Of a DNA stretch of 31,911 nt, positions 15,703-29,380 are shown piece by piece. This DNA is from an uncultured Methanosarcinales archaeon. GTDB lineage: Archaea > Nanobdellota > Nanobdellia > Woesearchaeales > ARS49. Numbering within the stretch: position 1 is the stretch's first letter; each line of letters opens with the position of its first letter. Under the pieces are notes generated by a model that searched no databases, was not told the origin of the DNA, and saw only the letters and a program-made list of their open reading frames with translations. Made by a program: the position numbers and the translations under genes. The stretch is from the NCBI GenBank assembly GCA_964445485.1, contig CAYUPS010000009.1, forward strand, positions 11,579 to 43,489. The letters are read 5' to 3'.

Positions 15703-16632
15703 ATGGAACTCACCACCATCCTGATGATCGCCGGCAGCGCAGTGGCGTTCATCTTCTTCCTCCGCGGCTTCCGTCAGGTCGATCAGACCGAGCGCGGCCT
15801 CATCGAGCGCTGGGGCAAATTCGTCGGCTTCGCCGAGCCCGGCCTGCACTGGATCCTGCCAGTCATGTACCGCATGCGGCGCGTGGATATCACTGAGAAG
15901 ATGGTCGCCTCCGGCACGCAGGACATCATCACCAAGGACAAGCTGAACGCCAGCGTCGACCTCGTCGTGTACTTCCAGGTGCAGAGCGATGAGGAATCCA
16001 TCAAGAAGAGCCAGTACAGCGTCTCCGACTATGAGACGCAGATCGTCAGCCTGGCCCGCACCACGGCGCGCAACATCATCGGCAAGCTGAGCTTCACCGA
16101 GACGAACTGCGAGCGCGAGAAGCTCAACACGCAGCTCGAGGAACATCTCAAGAAGGAAGTGCAGGCGTGGGGCCTGCGCATCGTGCGCGTCGAACTGCAG
16201 GAGATCGACCCGCCCGACATCGTGCAGAACGCGATGAATGAAGTTGTGACTAATGAGCAGAAGAAGCTCGCGGCGACCGACTTCGCGACCGCCAAGGAGA
16301 CCGAAGCGGACGGCGAGCGCAGAGCCGCTGTCAAGAAGGCGCAGGGCGAGGCCGAAGCGGTGCAGGTGCGCGCCAAGGCTGATGCTGAGGCCGTGACGCT
16401 CAAGGCCGAAGCGCATGCGAAGGCAATCGAGCTGGTCAACACCGCCGCCGAGAAGTACTTCAAGGGGAACGCGCAGACGCTCAAGCGCCTCGAATCCATG
16501 GTGGAAGCCACCAAGGCCAACACGAAGATCATCTTCACGAGTGACAATCGCACGCTCGAGACGCTGCTCGCCGCCGCGGCGGGAATCAAGGAAAGCACGC
16601 CGCAGGAGCCCGCCGCCAAACCGGCGACATAG
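15703..16632 (+). CDS. SPFH/band-7 (stomatin/HflKC-like) membrane protein
   Basis: GAAGGAGG RBS. N-terminal TM. SPFH core RGLIERWGKFVGFAEPGLHWILPVMYRMRRVDI ..., followed by an Ala/Glu/Lys-rich coiled-coil tail. Confidence 0.9.
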   Translation: MELTTILMIAGSAVAFIFFLRGFRQVDQTERGLIERWGKFVGFAEPGLHWILPVMYRMRRVDITEKMVASGTQDIITKDKLNASVDLVVYFQVQSDEESIKKSQYSVSDYETQIVSLARTTARNIIGKLSFTETNCEREKLNTQLEEHLKKEVQAWGLRIVRVELQEIDPPDIVQNAMNEVVTNEQKKLAATDFATAKETEADGERRAAVKKAQGEAEAVQVRAKADAEAVTLKAEAHAKAIELVNTAAEKYFKGNAQTLKRLESMVEATKANTKIIFTSDNRTLETLLAAAAGIKESTPQEPAAKPAT

Positions 16633-16639
16633 CATCCTC

Positions 16640-16669
16640 GCCGCCCCTCGTCCGCGTGAGAGGGGCGGC
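16640..16669 (+). terminator. possible attenuator/terminator hairpin (no U-tract)
   Basis: 10-bp perfect stem GCCGCCCCTC / GAGGGGCGGC with a 10-nt loop, directly after the SPFH stop. No T-run follows. Confidence 0.3.
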
Positions 16670-16706
16670 AAACACCCGCATCTCAACAATAGAAAGGAGA
16701 CAGCAC

Positions 16707-17087
16707 GTGAAACGCGGTTTTACCATCATCGAGCTGCTGATCGTGATCGCCATCATCGCGATTCTCGCAGCGATCGTCCTGCCCATGCTCGACAAGAGAC
16801 GGGAGCGGCAGCGCATGCTCAACAACACCGTCTCCCTGATCGAACTGCGCAACGATCTCGGCGAGTGGAGCATCACGAGCATGGACGTCGAAGGAGGCGA
16901 CAAGCATCTGATCACGCTCTCGCGCACAATCAACGCCACCGTCGAGACGAAGAGCGTGTACGTGAGCAAGGAGGCCTTTGAGCTGCTCTGGCCGCGCTGG
17001 GAGCACCATCGCAAGGTCAGCACACTTCTCCAGGACCTCCCTGCGCAAGTGGAGAGGGGCGCAGCGAACGCGGAAGAGGGGATTTAG
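16707..17087 (+). CDS. prepilin-type N-terminal cleavage/methylation domain protein (type IV pilin-like/pseudopilin)
   Basis: GTG 16707 after TAGAAAGGAGA. Sequence VKRG/FTIIELLIVIAIIAILAAIV is a class III signal peptide with Glu at +5. Confidence 0.8.
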   Translation: MKRGFTIIELLIVIAIIAILAAIVLPMLDKRRERQRMLNNTVSLIELRNDLGEWSITSMDVEGGDKHLITLSRTINATVETKSVYVSKEAFELLWPRWEHHRKVSTLLQDLPAQVERGAANAEEGI

Positions 17088-17159
17088 GCGGCGTAAGGAC
17101 GCGGCAGCCCATCCTGTAGAATGGGCGGCGAGAAACACTCATTCATCGCGAGGTGCATT

Positions 17160-18020
17160 ATGCGGGCATTCTGCCTCATCGCGGCATTGCTGGCGGCGAA
17201 CATCGTCGCTGCCGAAGACGAAGCGCTCAACGAAGACCTGCCGCAGGTCACGACGATCCGGCGCTTCATGCAGGACGGCCGGCAGCTGATGGAGCTCACG
17301 CTGCGCCAGGACGGCAAGGACGTGAGCATCTTCATCGACCTGGCCAAGACGCCCGAGGCCCAGCTGCTCCAGCCGGGCGACCGCATCACGGGAGAGTACA
17401 AGAAGGAGAACCGGACGCTCTGGATGACCGCGACGCACATCATCGGCGCGAACGGCCTGCCTATCACGATGGTCACGGAAGACCGCGCGCGGCGGATCAG
17501 GGCCATCGACGCGAGCAAGAACCCCATCGTCGTGACGCTCGATGACGGCACGGTCTACAAGATCGACGGCCTGCTGCATCCCTGGTACGTGCGGCTCAAG
17601 AAGGGGCAGGGCGTGTGCTTCGACTACGTGCAGCGGAGCGAGGACCGCTGGGCGCACGCCGCGACCATCCGGCTCTTCGCGCCGGGCGTCCCTGACACGC
17701 GTCTTGAGACGTGGTCCTTCGGCGTCGAGGACGAAGTCGAGACAGTCGTGTGGGAGAACCAGCACGTCTGCCAGGTAACGACCCGCGGCAAGCGGCGGTT
17801 CTGGATCGACGTGCGGGTCTATCCGGGCTGCCGGCACTTCGTGAGGGGATTCCGCCTGCCGTTCGGCGCCCTTATCTACCAGAACAGGCACTGGCAGCCG
17901 CAGGCATGGTGGGTCAAGCACCATCACCGCCACAGGCACCACATGCGCGATCATCACCGCGGCAAGGGCGATGGCAAGAAGCACCGCGGCGGCAAGCACA
18001 AGGGAGGCAAGAAGAAATAA
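17160..18020 (+). CDS. secreted protein with a C-terminal His/Lys/Gly-rich tail
   Basis: GAGGTG RBS before ATG 17160. Signal peptide MRAFCLIAALLAANIVAA. C-terminus HHHRHRHHMRDHHRGKGDGKKHRGGKHKGGKKK. Confidence 0.65.
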   Translation: MRAFCLIAALLAANIVAAEDEALNEDLPQVTTIRRFMQDGRQLMELTLRQDGKDVSIFIDLAKTPEAQLLQPGDRITGEYKKENRTLWMTATHIIGANGLPITMVTEDRARRIRAIDASKNPIVVTLDDGTVYKIDGLLHPWYVRLKKGQGVCFDYVQRSEDRWAHAATIRLFAPGVPDTRLETWSFGVEDEVETVVWENQHVCQVTTRGKRRFWIDVRVYPGCRHFVRGFRLPFGALIYQNRHWQPQAWWVKHHHRHRHHMRDHHRGKGDGKKHRGGKHKGGKKK

Positions 18021-19168: not shown

Positions 19169-19340
19169 ACGCATGAGAGGAGGCGAGATGGCGCGAGAAC
19201 CGCCACACATCCCGCAGTTATCCCGCACGTGATTGCCAACCGCGTTGTCAATACTCTTCGGACGGCGCCGGGGCTGCCACCCGTCATCCTGACGGGGGCT
19301 TCGGCGCCGAACCAGCAGTACAATCCCAGGAGACGCACAC

Positions 19341-21395
19341 ATGTCTCGGAATGAATTCGACCGCAGTGGAGGCGGGCAGGGCTTCTTCGAGAAGAATCGG
19401 GGGAAGCTCATCCTCTTCGCCGTCATCGGCATCCTGCTCCTGATCATCAGCTTCGCCACCATCGGCTCCGTTGATCCGGCCCACGGGGAGTTCTACGTGT
19501 GGCGCAACATCATGGGCAAGGAGCTCCCGCCCGGCCAGATCATCGCGGACGAGGGCCAGGCGGGCTTCACGCGCAAGATGCACACGCAGGGCTGGGAGTG
19601 GTACTTCTTCAAGAACATCACGAGGAAGCTCGAAGGACCCTTCACCGTCACCGAGGTCGGCCCCGGCCAGATATGCACGCTGGTCCAGCACACCGGCAAG
19701 CCGCTGCCCGAAGGGATGATTCTCGCGCCCGTGAACCGCAATGAGGACGGCACGCCGAAGCTCAACGAGATGGGCCTGCCCGAATCGGACTACATGGGCA
19801 TGCTGGACGAGATGCTCGGCCCGGGGCAGTACCGCGTGCATCCGAAGATGTACACGCCGCAGCTGTTCGACTGGGTGGATGTGCCGTCGAATCAGATCTG
19901 CATCCTCAAGCAGAACGACGGCATGTCTCTTCCCGAAGGTATGCTGCTCGCGCCTGTCGAGCGCACTGCGGATGGGACGCCGAAGCTCAACGAGATGGGC
20001 ATGCCCTACAGCAAGTACCGCGGCATGCTGGATGAATACCTCACGCCCGGCCAGTACCGCATCCATCCGGGCAAGTACAAATCGCTGCTGGTGAACATGA
20101 GCGAGGTCAAAGCGGGAGAGGTGGGCGTTCTCGTGCGGCGCGCAGGCCTGCCGCTGCCCGACGGCGAATTCATCGCACCCATCGACCGCAATGAGGACGG
20201 ATCCGCGAAGCTGCGCGACAGCATCCCGCAGTCGCGCTACAAGGGCATCCTGGCAGAAGTGCTCAAGCCGGGCCAGTACCGCGTCCATCCGGGCATCTAC
20301 GAGTTCATCACGGAGAAAGCGGTGCGGGTCATGCCTGGCGAGGTCGGCGTCGTGACCGCCCTCACCGGCAAGTCCAAACCGGAGACGCAGCTGCTCGCCA
20401 AGGAGGGCGAGCGCGGCGTGCAGGAGAAAGTTCTCCCTGCCGGCACGTACTACCTCAACCCTCACATGGTCAAGGTGGACAATTTCTCCATCCAGTCCCA
20501 CCTGACCGAATTCTTGCAGGACGACAAAGCGGAGACCTTCGACGAGATCGACTTCCCGTCGAACGAAGGGTTCATGCTCAAACTCGATATCGCTGTCGAG
20601 TGGAGGGGCGACGAGAACAGGATCCCTGAGCTGTTCGTGCGGCTCGGCAACATCAAGGACCTGCAGCACAAGGTCGTCGTGCCCAACACCAGGTCGATCG
20701 CGCGGACGGAAGGCAGCAAGTACGGCGCGAAGCAGTTCATCCAAGGCGCGACGCGCGAGCAGTTCGAGAAGGCGTTCTTCGATGAACTGAAGGAGGTGTG
20801 CGCGGAGAAGGGCGTGCAGATCATGCGGGGCGTGGTGCGCAAGCTCACCGTCCCCGAGCAGATCTCGGAGCCCATCCGCATGGCGGAGATCGCCCGCCAG
20901 GAAGTGCTGCGCAACAAGGAGGAAGTGGAACGGGCAAAGTCTGCTGCGCTCAAGATGGAGGAAGAGACGCGCATCGAGCAGCGCAAACAGCAGATCGACG
21001 CTGAGACGCAGAAGATGGTCGCGGACACCAATGCTCAACAGCGCCTCTCCGTCGCCAAGGTCGAGCTGGACACCGCAAAGCAGGAGGCAGAGGCGACCAA
21101 GACGCGCGGCGATGCCGAAGCGCATGTCATCTTCGCCAAGAAGAAGGCGGAGGCGGACGGCGTGAGGGTCATGACCGAGGCATTCGGCGGGGGCGAGAGC
21201 CTGGCGCGGTACGAGATGGCGAAGGCCGTGTCGGCCAACACGACGTTCGTGTGGCTGCCGTCGAACGAAGGGACGTTCTGGGGCGGCGGTGGTACTGAAG
21301 GGCTGCTGGGTGACATGACCAAGTGGCTCGTCAAGGACGCCCGCAAGAGCAATACTGACGGCACGGAGAAGCCTGTGCCGCTCAAGAGCCGCTAA
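19341..21395 (+). CDS. membrane-anchored SPFH/band-7 domain protein preceded by three (about 3.5) tandem 75-aa repeats
   Basis: CAGGAGA RBS. TM LILFAVIGILLLIISFATIG. Three repeats at aa 101-325 (consensus V-x-PG-x-I/V ... LPEGM-LAPV-R-EDGTPKLNEMG-P-S-Y-GMLDE-L-PGQYRVHP-x-Y). SPFH core from aa 330 (MPGEVGVVTALTGKS...LPAGTYYLNPHMVKV). Ala/Glu/Lys-rich coiled-coil tail. Confidence 0.85.
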   Translation: MSRNEFDRSGGGQGFFEKNRGKLILFAVIGILLLIISFATIGSVDPAHGEFYVWRNIMGKELPPGQIIADEGQAGFTRKMHTQGWEWYFFKNITRKLEGPFTVTEVGPGQICTLVQHTGKPLPEGMILAPVNRNEDGTPKLNEMGLPESDYMGMLDEMLGPGQYRVHPKMYTPQLFDWVDVPSNQICILKQNDGMSLPEGMLLAPVERTADGTPKLNEMGMPYSKYRGMLDEYLTPGQYRIHPGKYKSLLVNMSEVKAGEVGVLVRRAGLPLPDGEFIAPIDRNEDGSAKLRDSIPQSRYKGILAEVLKPGQYRVHPGIYEFITEKAVRVMPGEVGVVTALTGKSKPETQLLAKEGERGVQEKVLPAGTYYLNPHMVKVDNFSIQSHLTEFLQDDKAETFDEIDFPSNEGFMLKLDIAVEWRGDENRIPELFVRLGNIKDLQHKVVVPNTRSIARTEGSKYGAKQFIQGATREQFEKAFFDELKEVCAEKGVQIMRGVVRKLTVPEQISEPIRMAEIARQEVLRNKEEVERAKSAALKMEEETRIEQRKQQIDAETQKMVADTNAQQRLSVAKVELDTAKQEAEATKTRGDAEAHVIFAKKKAEADGVRVMTEAFGGGESLARYEMAKAVSANTTFVWLPSNEGTFWGGGGTEGLLGDMTKWLVKDARKSNTDGTEKPVPLKSR
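19641..20315 (+). repeat. 3 x 225-bp in-frame tandem repeat inside the SPFH-repeat gene
   Basis: Period 225 nt, e.g. CCGAAGCTCAACGAGATGGGC at 19755 and 19980 and GCGAAGCTG at about 20205. Copies are diverged at the DNA level. Confidence 0.8.
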
Positions 21396-21549
21396 GAGCC
21401 AATCAGGCCTGAGGAGACAATACCATGGCCACTCTGATGGCCCGCAACCGCGATCCTCCCGCCCCCGAATGCTGCGGGGGCGGAGTGATGATCCTGATGT
21501 GCATAGTGCCGTGTCGTACGAGGATGAACCGCGAACAAGGAGGTGTCTC

Positions 21550-22119
21550 ATGAAGTTCACTGCGTTGCTGCTGTGCTGCGTGGCGATGGTCTTCGCGCCG
21601 ATGGCGTTCTGCGCCGACGCGCTGCCGACCATGCCCGAGGAGGAGCTGCTGCAGAAGTTCGGCGACCACACCATCGCGTGCCCGATCCGCTCGGAGAAGA
21701 ACGAGTGGTACGCGCTGACGCTCCAGAAGGGCGAGACGGGCATGAGCATGTTCGTCACGCAGGAGATGTACGGGCGCGTCGTGGTCGGCATGGCGCACTC
21801 GGCGCCGACACTGGGCGAGCTCCTGCCGGAGGAGGCGAAGGCGGCGGAGAAGGCGCTCGAGAGCGCGCACGGCCCTCTCGAGAGGGTGCGTGCGTTCATG
21901 CACGTCGAAACGATGAAGCTGAAGGTCCTGGGCACGCATCCGAGCGGCAAGGAGTGGTGCGCCGTGCTGGCGTTCATCCATCCGAATGGCGTGGGGTTCA
22001 TCGAGAACCCGCTCACGCAGGAGGAAGCGGAGACGCTCGGGAAGGCGCTCGAGAGCAAGCGCGTGACGCTCACGGCGGCCCTCAAGGCGCAGAAGGCGCT
22101 GGTGGAGAAGAAGGAATAG
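21550..22119 (+). CDS. secreted protein with an internal duplication (189 aa)
   Basis: AAGGAGGTG RBS before ATG 21550. Signal peptide MKFTALLLCCVAMVFAPMAFCA. Internal halves: KNEWYALTL...LPEEAKAAEKALES versus GKEWCAVLA...LTQEEAETLGKALES. Confidence 0.7.
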   Translation: MKFTALLLCCVAMVFAPMAFCADALPTMPEEELLQKFGDHTIACPIRSEKNEWYALTLQKGETGMSMFVTQEMYGRVVVGMAHSAPTLGELLPEEAKAAEKALESAHGPLERVRAFMHVETMKLKVLGTHPSGKEWCAVLAFIHPNGVGFIENPLTQEEAETLGKALESKRVTLTAALKAQKALVEKKE

Positions 22120-22159
22120 CTCCGGCACGGAAGTCGGAGCGAAGAGTGTGACAAAGGGG

Positions 22160-22195
22160 GCGTCCTGCCGCTCATCACGGCAGGACGCTCTTTTT
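22160..22195 (+). terminator. rho-independent terminator
   Basis: 11-bp perfect stem GCGTCCTGCCG / CGGCAGGACGC, 7-nt loop, then TCTTTTT. Confidence 0.8.
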
Positions 22196-22213
22196 CATGA
22201 AAGGAGGCCGCGC

Positions 22214-22567
22214 ATGGCCGCAGTATTGCTGGGGTTCGTGATCGGCATCGTCGTGGTTGTCGCAGGGGTGTGGATCGCGTGTTCCCTCTCGCGGAGGTTC
22301 GCCGATGAGGAGGTGTCGAGCACAGTCTTCGGCGGGTGGTTCTGCATGGCGGTGCTGTCGAATGTGTCCGTGGTGCCGCTGTTGTCAGTCAGGCTGGCGG
22401 AGTGGTGGGGGTTGGAGCTCGCAGGGGGCGCGGGGATGGGGCCGCTCCTGGTGGGGGCGACCGTCCTTCTCGGGTTCCTGTGGCGCAGAGGTGAGCTGTT
22501 GCGGCACACCTATGCAAAGTGGGGGTTGCGCAAGGAGTTGCAGGGGAAGGATCCGCCGCGTACCTGA
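22214..22567 (+). CDS. integral membrane protein (117 aa, 3 TM)
   Basis: GAAAGGAGG RBS before ATG 22214. Hydrophobic helices. Confidence 0.6.
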   Translation: MAAVLLGFVIGIVVVVAGVWIACSLSRRFADEEVSSTVFGGWFCMAVLSNVSVVPLLSVRLAEWWGLELAGGAGMGPLLVGATVLLGFLWRRGELLRHTYAKWGLRKELQGKDPPRT

Positions 22568-22592
22568 TCGTCCTGCGTCTGTTGCAGGACAA

Positions 22593-22623
22593 GCCGTCTT
22601 CCTTCGGGAGGGCGGCTTTTTTT
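22593..22623 (+). terminator. rho-independent terminator with UUCG tetraloop
   Basis: Stem GCCGTCTTCC / GGAGGGCGGC (10 bp, two G-U wobbles), TTCG loop, then T7. It ends the + strand block; an AT-rich spacer follows before the convergent vapC. Confidence 0.75.
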
Positions 22624-22653: not shown

Positions 22654-23037
22654 TCAGTACCGCTGCGTCTTCAAACCGCGCACCGTCAAGAGCGCCTCGT
22701 TGCGCGTGAGCACCTGCTCATTGTGGTGCAGGGCGAACCCCGCGATCATCGCATCGTCCCACGAGAGCATCCTGCTCGCCGCGCGCGCCTCGGCAGCGAC
22801 TGCGGCAGCGCGCCGCGCGCACTCCGCATCGAGCGGCAGCGTCGTGAGCGCGTCGAGCAATTCATGCACGAGCGCGCGCTTGTGCGCAGGGAGCGAATGC
22901 GTCGCGGCCTGGATCTGGAACACCGACGGGGCGGTCGCCCGCACAGGCGTGCCGGCGCGCTCTATCTCCTGCGCCATCATGACAGCATGGCTCTCGCCGC
23001 GCAAAAGGTCGATGAGGAACTGCGTATCGAGTATCAT
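22654..23037 (-). CDS. vapC: PIN-domain toxin VapC
   Basis: N-terminus MILDTQFLIDLLRG typical of VapC. Acidic PIN residues. 4-nt ATGA overlap with the upstream antitoxin gene. Confidence 0.85.
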   Translation of the reverse strand: MILDTQFLIDLLRGESHAVMMAQEIERAGTPVRATAPSVFQIQAATHSLPAHKRALVHELLDALTTLPLDAECARRAAAVAAEARAASRMLSWDDAMIAGFALHHNEQVLTRNEALLTVRGLKTQRY

Positions 23038-23267
23038 AAGTGGTAGAGGTCTCCGCGCAGGGAGTGCATCTTCTCCTTCTTGCGCATCGTCTCGGCGACA
23101 TGCTCGAGGTCCTGGGCCTCCATGGCGGAGAGGATGCCGGCGAATTCGGTGATGCGGGATGCGCCGGTGAGCCGCATGATCGCCTGGCTGAACGATTCAT
23201 TCTGCCGCTTGAGGCCCGAGAGGCGGTCGTAGGCCTCTGTGGTGATAGTGATGGTCTTTGTCGCCAT
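23034..23267 (-). CDS. vapB: antitoxin VapB (COG1753/PF02697-type, ribbon-helix-helix-like)
   Basis: MATKTITITTEAYDRLSGLKRQNESFSQAIMRL matches the putative-antitoxin family found upstream of PIN toxins. Start chosen at the internal ATG (track ORF 23034..23288). No clear SD, so the start is uncertain. Confidence 0.75.
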   Translation of the reverse strand: MATKTITITTEAYDRLSGLKRQNESFSQAIMRLTGASRITEFAGILSAMEAQDLEHVAETMRKKEKMHSLRGDLYHL

Positions 23268-23351
23268 AGTAAATACACATACATACACTTAGGTATAAGT
23301 CATTTTAGAACCACTACGGAGTGCTCAACATGCCAATATATAGTGAAAGAC
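23268..23351 (-). promoter_or_regulatory. AT-rich putative vapBC promoter/operator region
   Basis: GC drops sharply here. Contains the (CATA)-like direct repeat ACACATACATACAC and A/T tracts between the dtdA stop and the vapB start. Confidence 0.3.
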
Positions 23352-24158
23352 CTACTTGAGCTTCACGACCTTGATCCCTCGCGCGTCCAGCAGCGCGAGG
23401 ATCGGCGCGCGCTGCTCCGCAGAGCCGCACGACTTATCAAAGAGCGCAACATCTACCGGCTCGGCGCTGCGCTCGAGCGCCTGCGCCACGACCTCAGCCG
23501 ACAATCCTTTCTCCACAGCATACTTGGAGAACATGTGCGAGAACGCGTACTCTCCCGACAACGCCCTGCGCGTGAAGCGGTCCGGATAATGCCCGCCGCC
23601 AAAACCCAGCGCCACCGGCAGCTTCGCAGGAGCGGAGCGCATGAAACGCAGCACCGCCTGCGCGATGGCAGCGCCGCGCGACGCATCCGACCATTGCGCC
23701 TCGGTCGAACCGAGCTCCAGGAAGAGAAGCGGCGTCCTCACCGATGTCGGTCCGTGATGCGTCGCCTCGTACGTGACCTGCACCCCATCAGACGCGACCT
23801 CCTTGAGGCAGCGCAGCATGTGCGCGGCGAACGACGGATGCGCCACACCCAACGCCTCGGGATCGCCCGAACCCCACACCTCAGCGGTAGGATTGCCCAC
23901 AAAATGCACTGAATACGACACGACAGACTTCTCCGAGCGGTGGCGGTAGCAGAACACGAAACACTGCGCATCGAAGAGCGCATCAAGGGACGTCGCCTTC
24001 ACCAACTCCTCATCATGCCAGTACAGGTAATCCTTGCCGGCGCAGAAGAGGTTGTCCGCGACGCGCGAGAACGCGCCCGTTCGGAGCAGCGCATCGCCGA
24101 TAGTCGCCGACGCCATCTCCTTGCGCGTCACGACGAACACCACGCGGGCCTTGTGCAT
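23352..24158 (-). CDS. dtdA: D-aminoacyl-tRNA deacylase, archaeal/plant type (DTD2)
   Basis: Conserved DTD2 blocks VTYEATHHGPT, LGFGGGHYP and AFSHMFSKYA align with Pyrococcus DtdA (CYEATHHGPT, LGIGGGHYAP, FGHILPKYA). Length is about 268 aa. Confidence 0.8.
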   Translation of the reverse strand: MHKARVVFVVTRKEMASATIGDALLRTGAFSRVADNLFCAGKDYLYWHDEELVKATSLDALFDAQCFVFCYRHRSEKSVVSYSVHFVGNPTAEVWGSGDPEALGVAHPSFAAHMLRCLKEVASDGVQVTYEATHHGPTSVRTPLLFLELGSTEAQWSDASRGAAIAQAVLRFMRSAPAKLPVALGFGGGHYPDRFTRRALSGEYAFSHMFSKYAVEKGLSAEVVAQALERSAEPVDVALFDKSCGSAEQRAPILALLDARGIKVVKLK

Positions 24159-26467: not shown

Positions 26468-29380
26468 TCACACGAGCAGGTCTTCGGCTGCCCGCAGCAC
26501 GAACGCGGCAAGCTCCGGCGGCCACGTCTTGAACACGTGCTGCCGATCGCCCACGAGCCGCTCGAGCACGTCCGTGCGCACATCCGCCCGGTCGCCCTCG
26601 ATGAGTTTCGCCACCTCATCCTTGACATAGCCGTCGATCCCATGGAGCTCGGCGAGCTGGACGCGCAGGAACACGCGCTGCTCCTCGTCCTGCCGCCGCG
26701 CCTCGTCCGCCTGCCTCTCCCAGAACGCCTTGTAGTCGAACACGCGGCGCTCGGCCCCCTCGGGCGATCCGGCATCGCTGACGCGGCGCTCCTTGGGCAG
26801 TTTCAGCTTGGCCAGGACCATCTCGTGCATGCGGCGCAGGAACTCATGCTTGTCCTCGATGCGCAGCACGTCCATGTAGCCCTGCAGCGCGAGATTGAAC
26901 GCGAAGGGCGAAGGGATCGTCGTCTCGAGCTCGATGAGCTGTACCGTGCCCGCCTCGAGGCCCGCCAGAACGCGCTCAGCATTGCGGATGTCCATGAGGT
27001 CCTCGAGGCATTCGCGCCGCGCCTCCTTGAGGACGGAGAAGTCCGGATTGATGCGCTTGAGCGCCGAGCAGAGGATCTGCGCGCTCACCTGCTGCGTGCC
27101 AACGCGCTTGGAATGGCCCATGAAGTTGCGCAGGATCATCAGGGCGCGCGTCGCGCAGTGGCGGAAGCGGCGCTTGAAGACCTCCGAGCGCTCGATGGCG
27201 ACGCGCATGACGCGCTCGAGCTTGTCAGACTTGAGCAGGCGCAGCGCGTCCGCGGCAGGGATGCGTTTGGGCGCGACAAGGTAGAAGCCGTTGTCGTTAA
27301 TGCCTATCTCGACATCCTTGTGCCATGTGCGGCTGATGGCGAACGCGATGGCCCGCGAGAGGCAGTCGTTGACGCGGCGGCCGAAGAGCGCGTGGAACAC
27401 CATCTTGGTGTCCCTCTCATCCTCGTAGTACTCGAGGAGTATCTGGCGGTCGTTGGGGATCCTGCCGCAGAAGTCGAACTGCTCGCGGAAGTATGCGTAG
27501 ATGGCGCGCGCCGCGTTCTCATCGACGCACAGATGCGAATGGATGAATGAGAGCACCTCCTGCTCGGGCTGCTTGGCGCTGAGGCGCTCGAGCATCATGC
27601 GGCGGAAGCGGCCGATGTCGCTCGCCAGATCGAAGGAGAGCGGGAGCATCTCGCTCACCCAGTGCGGGACTGTCGGCGGCCTGTTGCTGGAGGCGGAGAC
27701 CTGCGCGACGGTGCCGCGCGAGAACTTGAACACGTACGTGTTGCCGCCGAGCACGAACACATCGCCCGGCTTGAGCCGCTCGAGGAACCCTTCGTCGATC
27801 GTGCCGATGGGCTCGGTGCCGACCTTCACCGTCACGAAGGACTCGTCGGGGATGGTGCCGATGTTGCTCATGTAGATGGGCCGCGAGAGCCTGCCGCGCT
27901 TGCCCAGCCTGCCGCCCTCGCGCCAGATGCGGGCGTAGATGTGGCGGTCTTCCAAATCAGTGAACGAGCCGCTGAGGTATTCGAGGATCTCGCTGAACTC
28001 CTCGCGCTTGAGATCGGCGTAGCAGAAGCTCCGGCGCATAAGGTCGAAGAGCTCCTTCTCGTCCCACTCCTGGGCCATGGCGGCGCCGACGACCTGCTGG
28101 GCGAGCACATCGAGGCAGTTGGTGGGGATGTGCAGGCGGTCGATGCGCTTCTCGCGGGCGGCCTTGACGAGGCATGCGCATTCGACGAGGTCGTCGCGGT
28201 CCATGACGATGATGCGCGCCTTGACGGTCTGGTGCAGGCGGTGGCCTGCCCTGCCCGCGCGCTGCAGGAAGCGCGCGACGCTCTTGGGGCTGCCGAGGCA
28301 GATGACGAGGTCGATGTAGCCGATGTCGATGCCGAGCTCCAGCGAGGTGGACGATGCGCAGACCTTGAGCTCGCCCTCGCGCAGGCGCCGCTCGATCTCG
28401 TGCCGCATCTCCTTGGAGAGCGAGCCGTGGTGGGCGCCGATGTTGCCTTCGTATCTCGAGGGCCAGCGGTTCTTGAGGTGGTCGACGACGCGCTCGGTGG
28501 CGGCGCGCGTGTTGGTGAAGATGAGGGTGGTGCGGTGCTCCTGCACGAGCCTGTCGATGAGCTCGTACATCTTGCCGTGCAGCAGCGCATGGGGCGTGTC
28601 GATGAGGTTGTCGACGGGCGAGATGACCTGGAGGTCGAGCTGCTTGAGGAACTGGACGTCGATGACTTTGCAGGGCCGGCCTGCGCCGACGAGGAAGCGC
28701 GCGACGTCCTGGATGGGGGCGACGGTGGCGGAGAGGCCGACGCGGCAGGTGTGCGCGCTCATGTGCTGCAGGCGCTCGAGGGAGATGGAGAGGTGGACGC
28801 CGCGCTTGTTCTCGGCGAGGGCGTGGATCTCGTCGATGATGACCCATTCGACGCTGCGCAGGTGGTCCTTGAATTTGGTGGATGCGAGGACGATGGCGAG
28901 CGATTCGGGCGTGGTGATGAGGATGTGCGGGGGTTTGGCGAGCATCGCGGCTTTCTCTTTCGGGGTGGTGTCGCCGGTGCGCACACCCACGCGGATGCCG
29001 AGATTTCTGCCTGCGATCTTCTCGATCTCGGCGAGCGGCTCGACGAGGTTCTTGTGGATGTCGTTGTTGAGGGCCTTGAGGGGGCTGATGTAGACGCAGT
29101 GGACTTTGTCCTCGAGGATTCCTTTCTCGGCGCTGTCGACGAGCTCGTTGAGGATGGCGAGGAAGCCGGTGAGGGTCTTGGTCGCGCCGGTGGGCGCGCT
29201 GACGAGGATGTTCTCGCGCTGGTGGATGGGGATGACGCCGAAGCGCTGGGGGAGGCTGAAGTCTTTGAAGCGGGAGAAGAACCATTGCTTGACCGTGGGG
29301 TTGAGGATCCGGAGGAGGGCTTCCGCGGGGTGCGGCTCGTCGACGCGTTCGATGCCCGGGGGCCAGTTCTCGTCGGTCAT
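26468..29380 (-). CDS. lhr: Lhr-family ATP-dependent DNA helicase (superfamily 2, DExH)
   Basis: Motif I SAPTGATKT, motif II VIIDEIHALAE, later motifs TATLxN and QRAGRAGH. 970 aa with a long C-terminal Lhr-specific region. GAGGAC RBS. AT-rich promoter region upstream. Confidence 0.9.
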   Translation of the reverse strand: MTDENWPPGIERVDEPHPAEALLRILNPTVKQWFFSRFKDFSLPQRFGVIPIHQRENILVSAPTGATKTLTGFLAILNELVDSAEKGILEDKVHCVYISPLKALNNDIHKNLVEPLAEIEKIAGRNLGIRVGVRTGDTTPKEKAAMLAKPPHILITTPESLAIVLASTKFKDHLRSVEWVIIDEIHALAENKRGVHLSISLERLQHMSAHTCRVGLSATVAPIQDVARFLVGAGRPCKVIDVQFLKQLDLQVISPVDNLIDTPHALLHGKMYELIDRLVQEHRTTLIFTNTRAATERVVDHLKNRWPSRYEGNIGAHHGSLSKEMRHEIERRLREGELKVCASSTSLELGIDIGYIDLVICLGSPKSVARFLQRAGRAGHRLHQTVKARIIVMDRDDLVECACLVKAAREKRIDRLHIPTNCLDVLAQQVVGAAMAQEWDEKELFDLMRRSFCYADLKREEFSEILEYLSGSFTDLEDRHIYARIWREGGRLGKRGRLSRPIYMSNIGTIPDESFVTVKVGTEPIGTIDEGFLERLKPGDVFVLGGNTYVFKFSRGTVAQVSASSNRPPTVPHWVSEMLPLSFDLASDIGRFRRMMLERLSAKQPEQEVLSFIHSHLCVDENAARAIYAYFREQFDFCGRIPNDRQILLEYYEDERDTKMVFHALFGRRVNDCLSRAIAFAISRTWHKDVEIGINDNGFYLVAPKRIPAADALRLLKSDKLERVMRVAIERSEVFKRRFRHCATRALMILRNFMGHSKRVGTQQVSAQILCSALKRINPDFSVLKEARRECLEDLMDIRNAERVLAGLEAGTVQLIELETTIPSPFAFNLALQGYMDVLRIEDKHEFLRRMHEMVLAKLKLPKERRVSDAGSPEGAERRVFDYKAFWERQADEARRQDEEQRVFLRVQLAELHGIDGYVKDEVAKLIEGDRADVRTDVLERLVGDRQHVFKTWPPELAAFVLRAAEDLLV

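Follow-up and report, generated by a model that had tools for sequence, protein, structure and literature searches.

The window analysed here, a stretch of 31,911 nucleotides from contig CAYUPS010000009.1 (assembly GCA_964445485.1), carries on its plus strand an open reading frame (ORF) at 19341..21395 that, according to the ORF list, encodes an SPFH-family protein of 684 aa. The gene combines a transmembrane (TM) anchor, four extra units that resemble SPFH1 and the repeats of the vault, the SPFH domain, a coiled coil and a C-terminal tail. Taking the identity of the protein, the origin of its repeats and their vault-like fold jointly, we hold with high confidence that it is a single-pass membrane protein of the SPFH (stomatin/prohibitin/flotillin/HflK-C) superfamily in which SPFH1 has been tandemly duplicated. 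Hydropathy and the AlphaFold2 (AF2) model both place the TM helix at aa 19-39 (19395..19457), and after it come, all on the plus strand, the degenerate, membrane-proximal and aromatic-rich (GWEWYFF) unit 0 (aa 45-105, 19473..19655), the three long repeats R1 (aa 106-180, 19656..19880), R2 (aa 181-255, 19881..20105) and R3 (aa 256-329, 20106..20327), and the SPFH domain's own SPFH1 (aa 330-388, 20328..20504), the template of the repeats, which is recognised by the start of the Pfam match, by the unit hidden Markov model (HMM; E 5e-23) and by the SPFH-own HMM described below. The SPFH2 alpha/beta core (aa 389-505, 20505..20855) leads into a continuous helix of 109 residues in the AF2 model (aa 506-614, 20856..21182), whose profile matches the flotillin-1 coiled-coil region and which has its counterparts in CC1 of SPFH cages and in the cap helix of the vault. 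The remainder (21183..21392), presumed to be the CC2/CT cap region, holds two short helices in the same model (aa 618-633 and 655-667) and the C-terminal motif FVWLPSNEGTFWGG, which stands in invariant alignment columns. Pfam Band_7 (PF01145) matches aa 329-534 with 69.4 bits against a cut-off of 23.6 (E 5.3e-19), over profile positions 2-174 of 176, and since the match begins at profile position 2, the repeats run directly up to where the SPFH domain truly begins. The SPFH alpha/beta fold is present in the protein, as is, by AF2 and hydropathy, the layout of an N-terminal anchor followed by SPFH1, SPFH2, CC1, CC2 and CT.

That the repeats are real, as the earlier note had proposed, is borne out by a self-comparison of the protein (BLOSUM62), in which the strongest diagonal lies at an offset of 75 aa (score 313, aa 101-218) and the following ones at offsets of 74, 150 and 149, and by the local alignment scores of the repeat pairs, which stand 31-38 standard deviations above those of 1000 shuffles and were reached by none of them. 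At the amino acid level, R1 and R2 are 60% identical, R1 and R3 49%, and R2 and R3 39%. The sequence motifs that had been quoted for the repeats are present, except that R2 starts with VPSN instead of V-x-PG. A degenerate copy had also been placed ahead of the three, and unit 0 (aa ~45-105) bears this out, being matched by the unit HMM (E 3e-9), aligning with the SPFH N-terminus at a z-score of 8.7 (0/1000 shuffles as high) and having the same beta fold as the other units in the AF2 model. R1 and R2 share 67% of their nucleotides (56% at third codon positions), and Tandem Repeats Finder reported no repeat there, the divergence of the copies being too great for it; both observations indicate that the copies are old, and thus neither an assembly artefact nor the outcome of recent slippage.

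The relatives of the protein reveal from what these units were made. Their N-termini carry tandem units of 57 aa (consensus V.aG.vGVvt..G..LP.G.iLA.eGerGvq..vL.PGtYylNP..y.v), the last of which is the start of the Band_7 domain itself, and the 74-75 aa units of the window protein correspond to this unit with an insertion of 16-18 aa after the 'LAP' position. The ancestral unit was of about 57 aa, and the middle units of the window clade gained 16-18 aa at one loop; the insertion of some 35 residues claimed earlier is not upheld, since the net gain, measured against the SPFH N-terminus and the relatives' units, is roughly half that size. The SPFH-own HMM was built solely from the N-terminal segment of the SPFH domain of distant members, the window protein and its close relatives being left out, and in this non-circular comparison it matched R1 (E 6e-6), R2 (6e-6) and R3 (4.6e-10, end to end with a single 16-aa insertion), as well as the window protein's own SPFH start (3.6e-24). 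Likewise, hhalign aligned the profile of the upstream units with that of the SPFH-own unit over 55 columns with 99.4% probability (E 1.6e-21). No Pfam family matches single repeats or the whole repeat region, even at E<=10, so that these results together support the reading of the repeats as internal duplications of the SPFH N-terminus and offer no other repeat family in its place. In the ordinary stomatin-like SPFH protein of the window (15703..16632), the canonical PGLHWILP hairpin is the sole part that the unit HMM matches. Searched against PDB sequences, the unit profile gave no significant match, the best relevant one being the SPFH1 hairpin of prohibitin-1 (E 0.48), and an NCBIfam search returned noise only, with the FloT equivalog model at 13.2 bits against a cut-off of 700.

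The first search for relatives, made with the N-terminal 388 aa of the window protein, returned proteins that all carry Band_7 and that, where named, come from PVC-group bacteria. When the SPFH domain's own unit is included in the count over 121 proteins (the window protein and 120 matches of this search), there are three units in 97/121, four in 19/121 and five in 3/121 (the window protein, P0008 and P0083); two of the 121 are miscounts, P0011 having been scored with 2 units and P0021 with 5, one of them being split in two. In the nearest relatives, at 57-61% identity along the full length, unit 0 is followed by two long units, A and B, and these by the SPFH domain. R1 shares 59-64% identity with unit A of P0001, P0003 and P0006, and R2 shares 56-59% with the relatives' unit A, while R3, which is orthologous to unit B, shares 54-66% with it; in the alignment, R2 stands out as an exact insertion of 75 aa relative to P0002-P0005. 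Since R1 and R2 are both A-like and R3 is B-like, the order in the window protein is A, A', B, with one extra A-type copy. The alignments thus indicate that the baseline of the family already includes two extra units and that a single unit type was duplicated long ago to give R1 and R2, and the description of the segment as triplicated is too simple, in that A and B were inherited and only one old A-type copy was added. Three-unit SPFH proteins of Lentisphaerae, Kiritimatiellia, Verrucomicrobiota and Phycisphaerae (for example P0016, P0037 and P0046) belong to the same family at 22-41% overall identity and share with the window protein the TM anchor, the repeated 57-aa units and the SPFH domain with its coiled coil, but they have two short upstream units where the window protein has four upstream units, and their genes often overlap a paralogue also with three units, whereas the window gene is solitary. 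Overlapping (4-bp) paralogous Band_7 pairs, reminiscent of HflK/HflC, were seen at L005 6430..9785, L007 3544..6617 and L008 5001..8296, and the partner in the L005 pair also has three units. The closest relative, P0001 (529 aa, L001 8001..9789), looks frameshifted, the next ORF of 74 aa holding the family C-terminus FGGGESLA...FVWLPANEGTFWGG.

A wider search, in which a profile of the upstream units only was compared with 1.84 billion representative proteins clustered at 50% identity, matched 2137 clusters at E<=1e-3, 1174 at <=1e-10 and 314 at <=1e-30. Among the best 150 of the 2137 clusters, proteins reach 1802 aa and have 3-15 matched stretches each, so that homologues with a variable number of repeats, which the earlier note had suggested looking for, do exist. 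Of the 15 relatives checked against Pfam, 13 have a Band_7 match after the array, which exceeds the cut-off in 12 of them and falls just short of it in one; of the other two, P0127 ends inside the Band_7 domain and P0139 has no Pfam match. None of these 15 multi-repeat relatives matches Pfam Vault or MVP_shoulder. Some multi-unit relatives add a C-terminal VWA domain or a zinc ribbon, and the organisms named among multi-unit members are Symploca, Okeania, Microseira, Geomonas and Desulfococcaceae. A TM helix is found in 246/288 family proteins, at a median of 9 aa ahead of the first unit, and first units are enriched in tryptophan (5% against 1%). The source annotations read solely 'SPFH domain-containing', 'VWA domain-containing', 'HflC' or 'YqiK'. 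Giant cyanobacterial relatives (P0121, P0122 and P0123; 1638-1802 aa) have 13-15 units, then Band_7, then a C-terminal VWA; one of them, P0122 from Symploca sp., is annotated only as 'VWA domain-containing protein'. The repeat family also has soluble members of the size of MVP, P0134 and P0136, which are about 840 aa long, have 7 units and lack an N-terminal TM helix; P0136, from Microseira wollei, has a C-terminal zinc ribbon. A profile search of genome contigs, in two scans, gave no close relative and only one distant Flavobacterium SPFH protein. In the literature, where subscription journals are mostly outside the coverage, our searches turned up no account of TM-anchored proteins from bacteria in which SPFH1 copies similar in sequence stand in tandem; the earlier note, too, knew of no description of the architecture, which is widespread in bacteria rather than rare. 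Judged by these profile matches, tandem SPFH1 copies are a widespread but unannotated arrangement, within which the window protein is set apart by an additional long unit.

The full-length AF2 model (pLDDT 77.5) consists of the TM helix, the beta units, the alpha/beta SPFH core, the 109-residue helix and the two short helices. Modelled separately, the repeats form confidently predicted beta modules (pLDDT 92.1, pTM 0.82), and the four extra units are predicted to stack straight, end to end, as small beta modules. In structure, single units resemble the SPFH1 of prohibitin, erlin and HflK/C. A Foldseek search with the repeat region returned MVP for all of its top 15 matches, with a probability of about 1, the next being at <=0.05, and the array R1-R9 of MVP is thus the only match of the predicted stack among solved structures. 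Tandem modules of the MVP-repeat fold N-terminal to an SPFH-like domain are, in this sense, present in the window protein. By sequence, the family profile finds among PDB entries prohibitin-1 (1.6e-8), flotillin-1 (2.5e-6) and also QmcA and stomatin, with HflK at E 0.029 and HflC at E 0.069, and MVP is absent. In an ECOD-based survey, the N-terminal subdomain of ordinary archaeal SPFH proteins is classed as 'MVP repeat' and the vault as eight tandem copies plus an SPFH shoulder (PMC13607799).

Around the gene, the window has a uniform GC content of 59-65% (about 62%) and its genes are ordinary chromosomal ones; Rfam recognised one tRNA only, and PADLOC gave no defence-system match for the SPFH gene or its neighbours. 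The SPFH gene lies entirely within an antisense ORF of 964 aa (19284..22178, minus strand), which is of a kind common in GC-rich DNA and for which there is no support as a real gene. Downstream, on the same strand and after short gaps, lie an ORF with a signal-peptide-like N-terminus (21469..22119, +) and one for a multi-TM protein (22148..22567, +), neither of which has a Pfam match, and the sole strong plus-strand terminator-like hairpin stands after both (22591-22618). The two ORFs are possibly co-transcribed with the SPFH gene, and their membership in the system is uncertain. In relatives, a small 2-TM protein with a winged-helix-like C-terminus is encoded directly downstream of the SPFH gene (L002 4738..5253, L004 4233..4637 and L007 6614..7030); these three match one another at E 1e-10 to 6e-7 and have no clear counterpart in the window, whose downstream ORFs match the small conserved membrane protein weakly (E 0.08). 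In none of the seven relatives compared does the gene neighbourhood share a partner with the window. No SPFH paralogue adjoins the window gene, the nearest SPFH gene being the ordinary stomatin-like one (15703..16632, +; 309 aa, Band_7 E 1e-34, single SPFH1), which lies 2.7 kb upstream with three ORFs between; no NfeD-type partner was detected beside that gene, and the neighbouring ORFs have no NfeD Pfam match. It is followed by a protein with a prepilin-type N-methylation motif (16656..17087, +; GFTIIELLIVIAIIAILAA) and by a secreted-looking protein of 299 aa with a His/Lys/Arg-rich tail (17121..18020, +; HHHRHRHHMRDHHRGKGDGKKHRGGKHKGGKKK). On the minus strand, 23352..24158 and 22654..23288 hold a D-aminoacyl-tRNA deacylase of the PF04414 type (E 3.7e-55), which is typical of archaea and plants, adjoining a VapC (PIN)/VapB (PF02697) toxin-antitoxin pair. 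Further along, an Lhr-type helicase of 970 aa (26468..29380, −) has its best matches at 62-72% identity, mostly named 'Candidatus Woesearchaeota archaeon', 'Nanoarchaeota archaeon' or 'uncultured archaeon'. These archaeal names, in place of a clear bacterial lineage, were unexpected, as the window, uniformly at about 62% GC, has a bacterial look in other respects, and it is possible that the names reflect either inter-domain transfer or the labels of mis-binned metagenome-assembled genomes.

SPFH proteins have the layout TM-SPFH1-SPFH2-CC1-CC2-CT, all their solved assemblies are rings or domes, and SPFH1 aromatics touch the membrane in SPFH cages (PMC12624060). We envisage that the window protein would likewise oligomerise side by side into a ring or dome, as in every solved SPFH protein, and that its stacked units would make up extra tiers of wall between the membrane and the SPFH2/coiled-coil dome, like the repeats in the vault barrel. 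Each unit would add one tier, giving a taller enclosed compartment above a patch of membrane, and the contact with the membrane that SPFH1 makes in ordinary SPFH cages would here fall to the aromatic-rich unit 0. The TM helix is flanked in the window protein by four K/R on its N-terminal side and one on its C-terminal side, which suggests an N-in orientation with the bulk of the protein outside the cytoplasmic membrane. The explanation as a whole, that is, SPFH1-derived vault-like repeats combined with a taller oligomeric cage on the membrane, seems to us moderately probable, and for the single step by which the repeats would lengthen the wall of an oligomeric SPFH cage, taken by analogy, we see the chances as about evenly balanced.

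Several observations weigh against this explanation. The cage is argued for by analogy only, as is the part that the repeats would play in its wall, and the gene neighbourhood is not conserved between the window and the seven relatives, with no NfeD or FtsH partner. In the AF2 model of the full-length protein, confidence is low for R2 and for the linkers (pLDDT about 50-70). The unit HMM finds no match in MVP, and hhalign gave a probability of 0.5% for the unit profile against human MVP 1-547, the MVP sequence used being identical to PDB chain 11dr_A over residues 1-850, and <=1.8% against profiles of R1-R9 and the shoulder N-terminus, which are shallow because the homologue search gave only tetrapod MVPs (20 sequences, all at >=67% identity and thus of low diversity). 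Pfam Vault (PF01505, PF17794-6) and MVP_shoulder (PF11978), matches to which all genuine MVPs carry, are absent from the window protein at E<=1 and from its repeats at E<=10. Finally, the side of the membrane on which the protein lies is uncertain, because the positive-inside signal of the family as a whole is weak (2.0 against 1.6 K/R), and a normal periplasm might not hold a tall cage.

Among other explanations, the repeats may serve as a spacer that sets the distance of the SPFH/coiled-coil ring from the membrane, or their 16-18 aa insertions may bind a ligand or partner in the periplasm or cell envelope. The insertion site is a hot spot, where unrelated insertions of 10-25 aa occur at the same loop in different clades, as would be expected of a variable binding surface; the giant relatives join 13-15 units with a C-terminal VWA or peptidoglycan-binding domain, suggesting interaction functions, and the charge bias around the TM helix would place the bulk of the window protein outside the cytoplasmic membrane. 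However, the sole structural counterpart of the array, R1-R9 of MVP, forms a wall, the units match no known binding-domain family, and they descend from SPFH1, which is the wall and membrane-contact element in solved cages (PMC12624060), so that we regard a spacer or binding role as unlikely, if worth keeping in mind. It has also to be considered that the protein is a true relative of MVP, with an array of common descent, and forms vault-like particles. The order of parts (beta repeats, SPFH-like shoulder and long helix) is that of MVP, some seven-unit members, such as P0134 and P0136 from Microseira, lack a TM helix, and prokaryotic MVP-like proteins are already in the literature (PMC3762200, PMC12962969). 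Set against this are the lack of any sequence signal to MVP, as judged with the tetrapod-only, low-diversity profile, the absence of Pfam Vault and MVP_shoulder matches, an SPFH domain that is closest by sequence to prohibitin and flotillin, with MVP not among its PDB matches, and the TM anchor. Moreover, the similarity from unit to unit shows that the array expanded inside this bacterial family, convergence being at least as likely, and we therefore consider common descent with the MVP array improbable.

The two remaining alternatives concern the repeats themselves. An unrelated beta-repeat family, for instance of the adhesin type, with a chance likeness to the SPFH N-terminus, could be suspected from the sub-threshold or summed matches of large relatives to Pfam CshA_repeat (PF19076), which amount to 51.6 bits in P0122 with no single stretch significant; yet the window protein and its repeats have no such match, and the non-circular HMM, the hhalign comparison with the SPFH-own unit, the structure comparison and the Pfam null effectively refute this very improbable reading. 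An assembly or annotation artefact, whether a spurious ORF or a repeat whose copies were collapsed or expanded, might be feared in a window of 62% GC with long spurious antisense ORFs such as 19284..22178 (−). It is refuted by the divergence of the copies in DNA (67% identity), by full-length homologues at 57-61% and by the confident AF2 fold, and its probability is close to nil.

Structural work on SPFH cages (HflK/C, prohibitin, erlin, flotillin and stomatin) and on the vault is active, and the origin of the vault is debated, with Asgard, pan-archaeal and bacterial roots proposed. A family in which the duplication of SPFH1 can still be read would offer a concrete path, open to testing, by which an ordinary SPFH protein could acquire a vault-like wall, and its range of 3-15 repeats is a natural series for asking whether repeat number sets cage height. 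There is also a case for a repeat model in the domain databases, since some 290 of the 684 residues here, and more than 1000 residues in some relatives, are unannotated. More speculatively, TM-anchored bacterial proteins with 3-15 SPFH1 copies could be tall vault-like membrane cages and living intermediates of the origin of the vault barrel, R1-R9 of MVP being ancient SPFH1 copies, by now past recognition, that arose by the same kind of tandem duplication as can still be read in the sequence here, a proposal that we put forward as tentative and on the whole doubtful.

Compared with known systems, the window protein shares the TM/SPFH1/SPFH2/CC1/CC2/CT layout and the Band_7 domain with the canonical SPFH cages (PHB1/2, HflK/C, erlin1/2, stomatin, QmcA and flotillin), but these have a single SPFH1 where it has five, three of them with the added 16-18 aa. 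HflK and HflC are encoded by an adjacent paralogous pair, unlike the window gene, and are not close to the window protein in sequence; nor does the gene qualify as a bacterial flotillin (FloT/YqiK) with an NfeD partner, given the 13.2 bits of the FloT model and the lack of an NfeD match in the neighbouring ORFs. The prokaryotic MVP-like proteins of the literature (Daly 2013, PMC3762200; Sokolskyi 2019, bioRxiv 10.1101/872010; PMC12962969; PMC13607799) combine between one and several MVP-type repeats with Band 7/SPFH and a helical tail; unlike the window family, they were found through similarity to MVP or have a single repeat, which is the ordinary SPFH1. Asgard homologues of MVP with five repeats are on record, together with the remark that few homologues exist in bacteria (PMC12962969; PMC3762200; bioRxiv 10.1101/872010). 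The vault itself has been counted among SPFH assemblies, as an unusual one that does not associate with membranes (PMC12624060), and a 2026 study describes vaults on membranes in situ (PMC13100048). MVP, which builds the vault shell (PDB 3GF5, 4V60, 6BP7 and 9BW6), shares with the window protein the order of tandem beta modules, SPFH-type shoulder and very long helix. It has nine repeats, however, against four extra units here, and is soluble, forming closed 39-mer half shells, whereas the window protein has its predicted TM helix at aa 19-39. MVP is eukaryotic, with few prokaryotic homologues reported, whereas the family of the window protein is bacterial, and while the units of the window protein are demonstrably copies of its own SPFH1, the repeats of MVP no longer show such a likeness.

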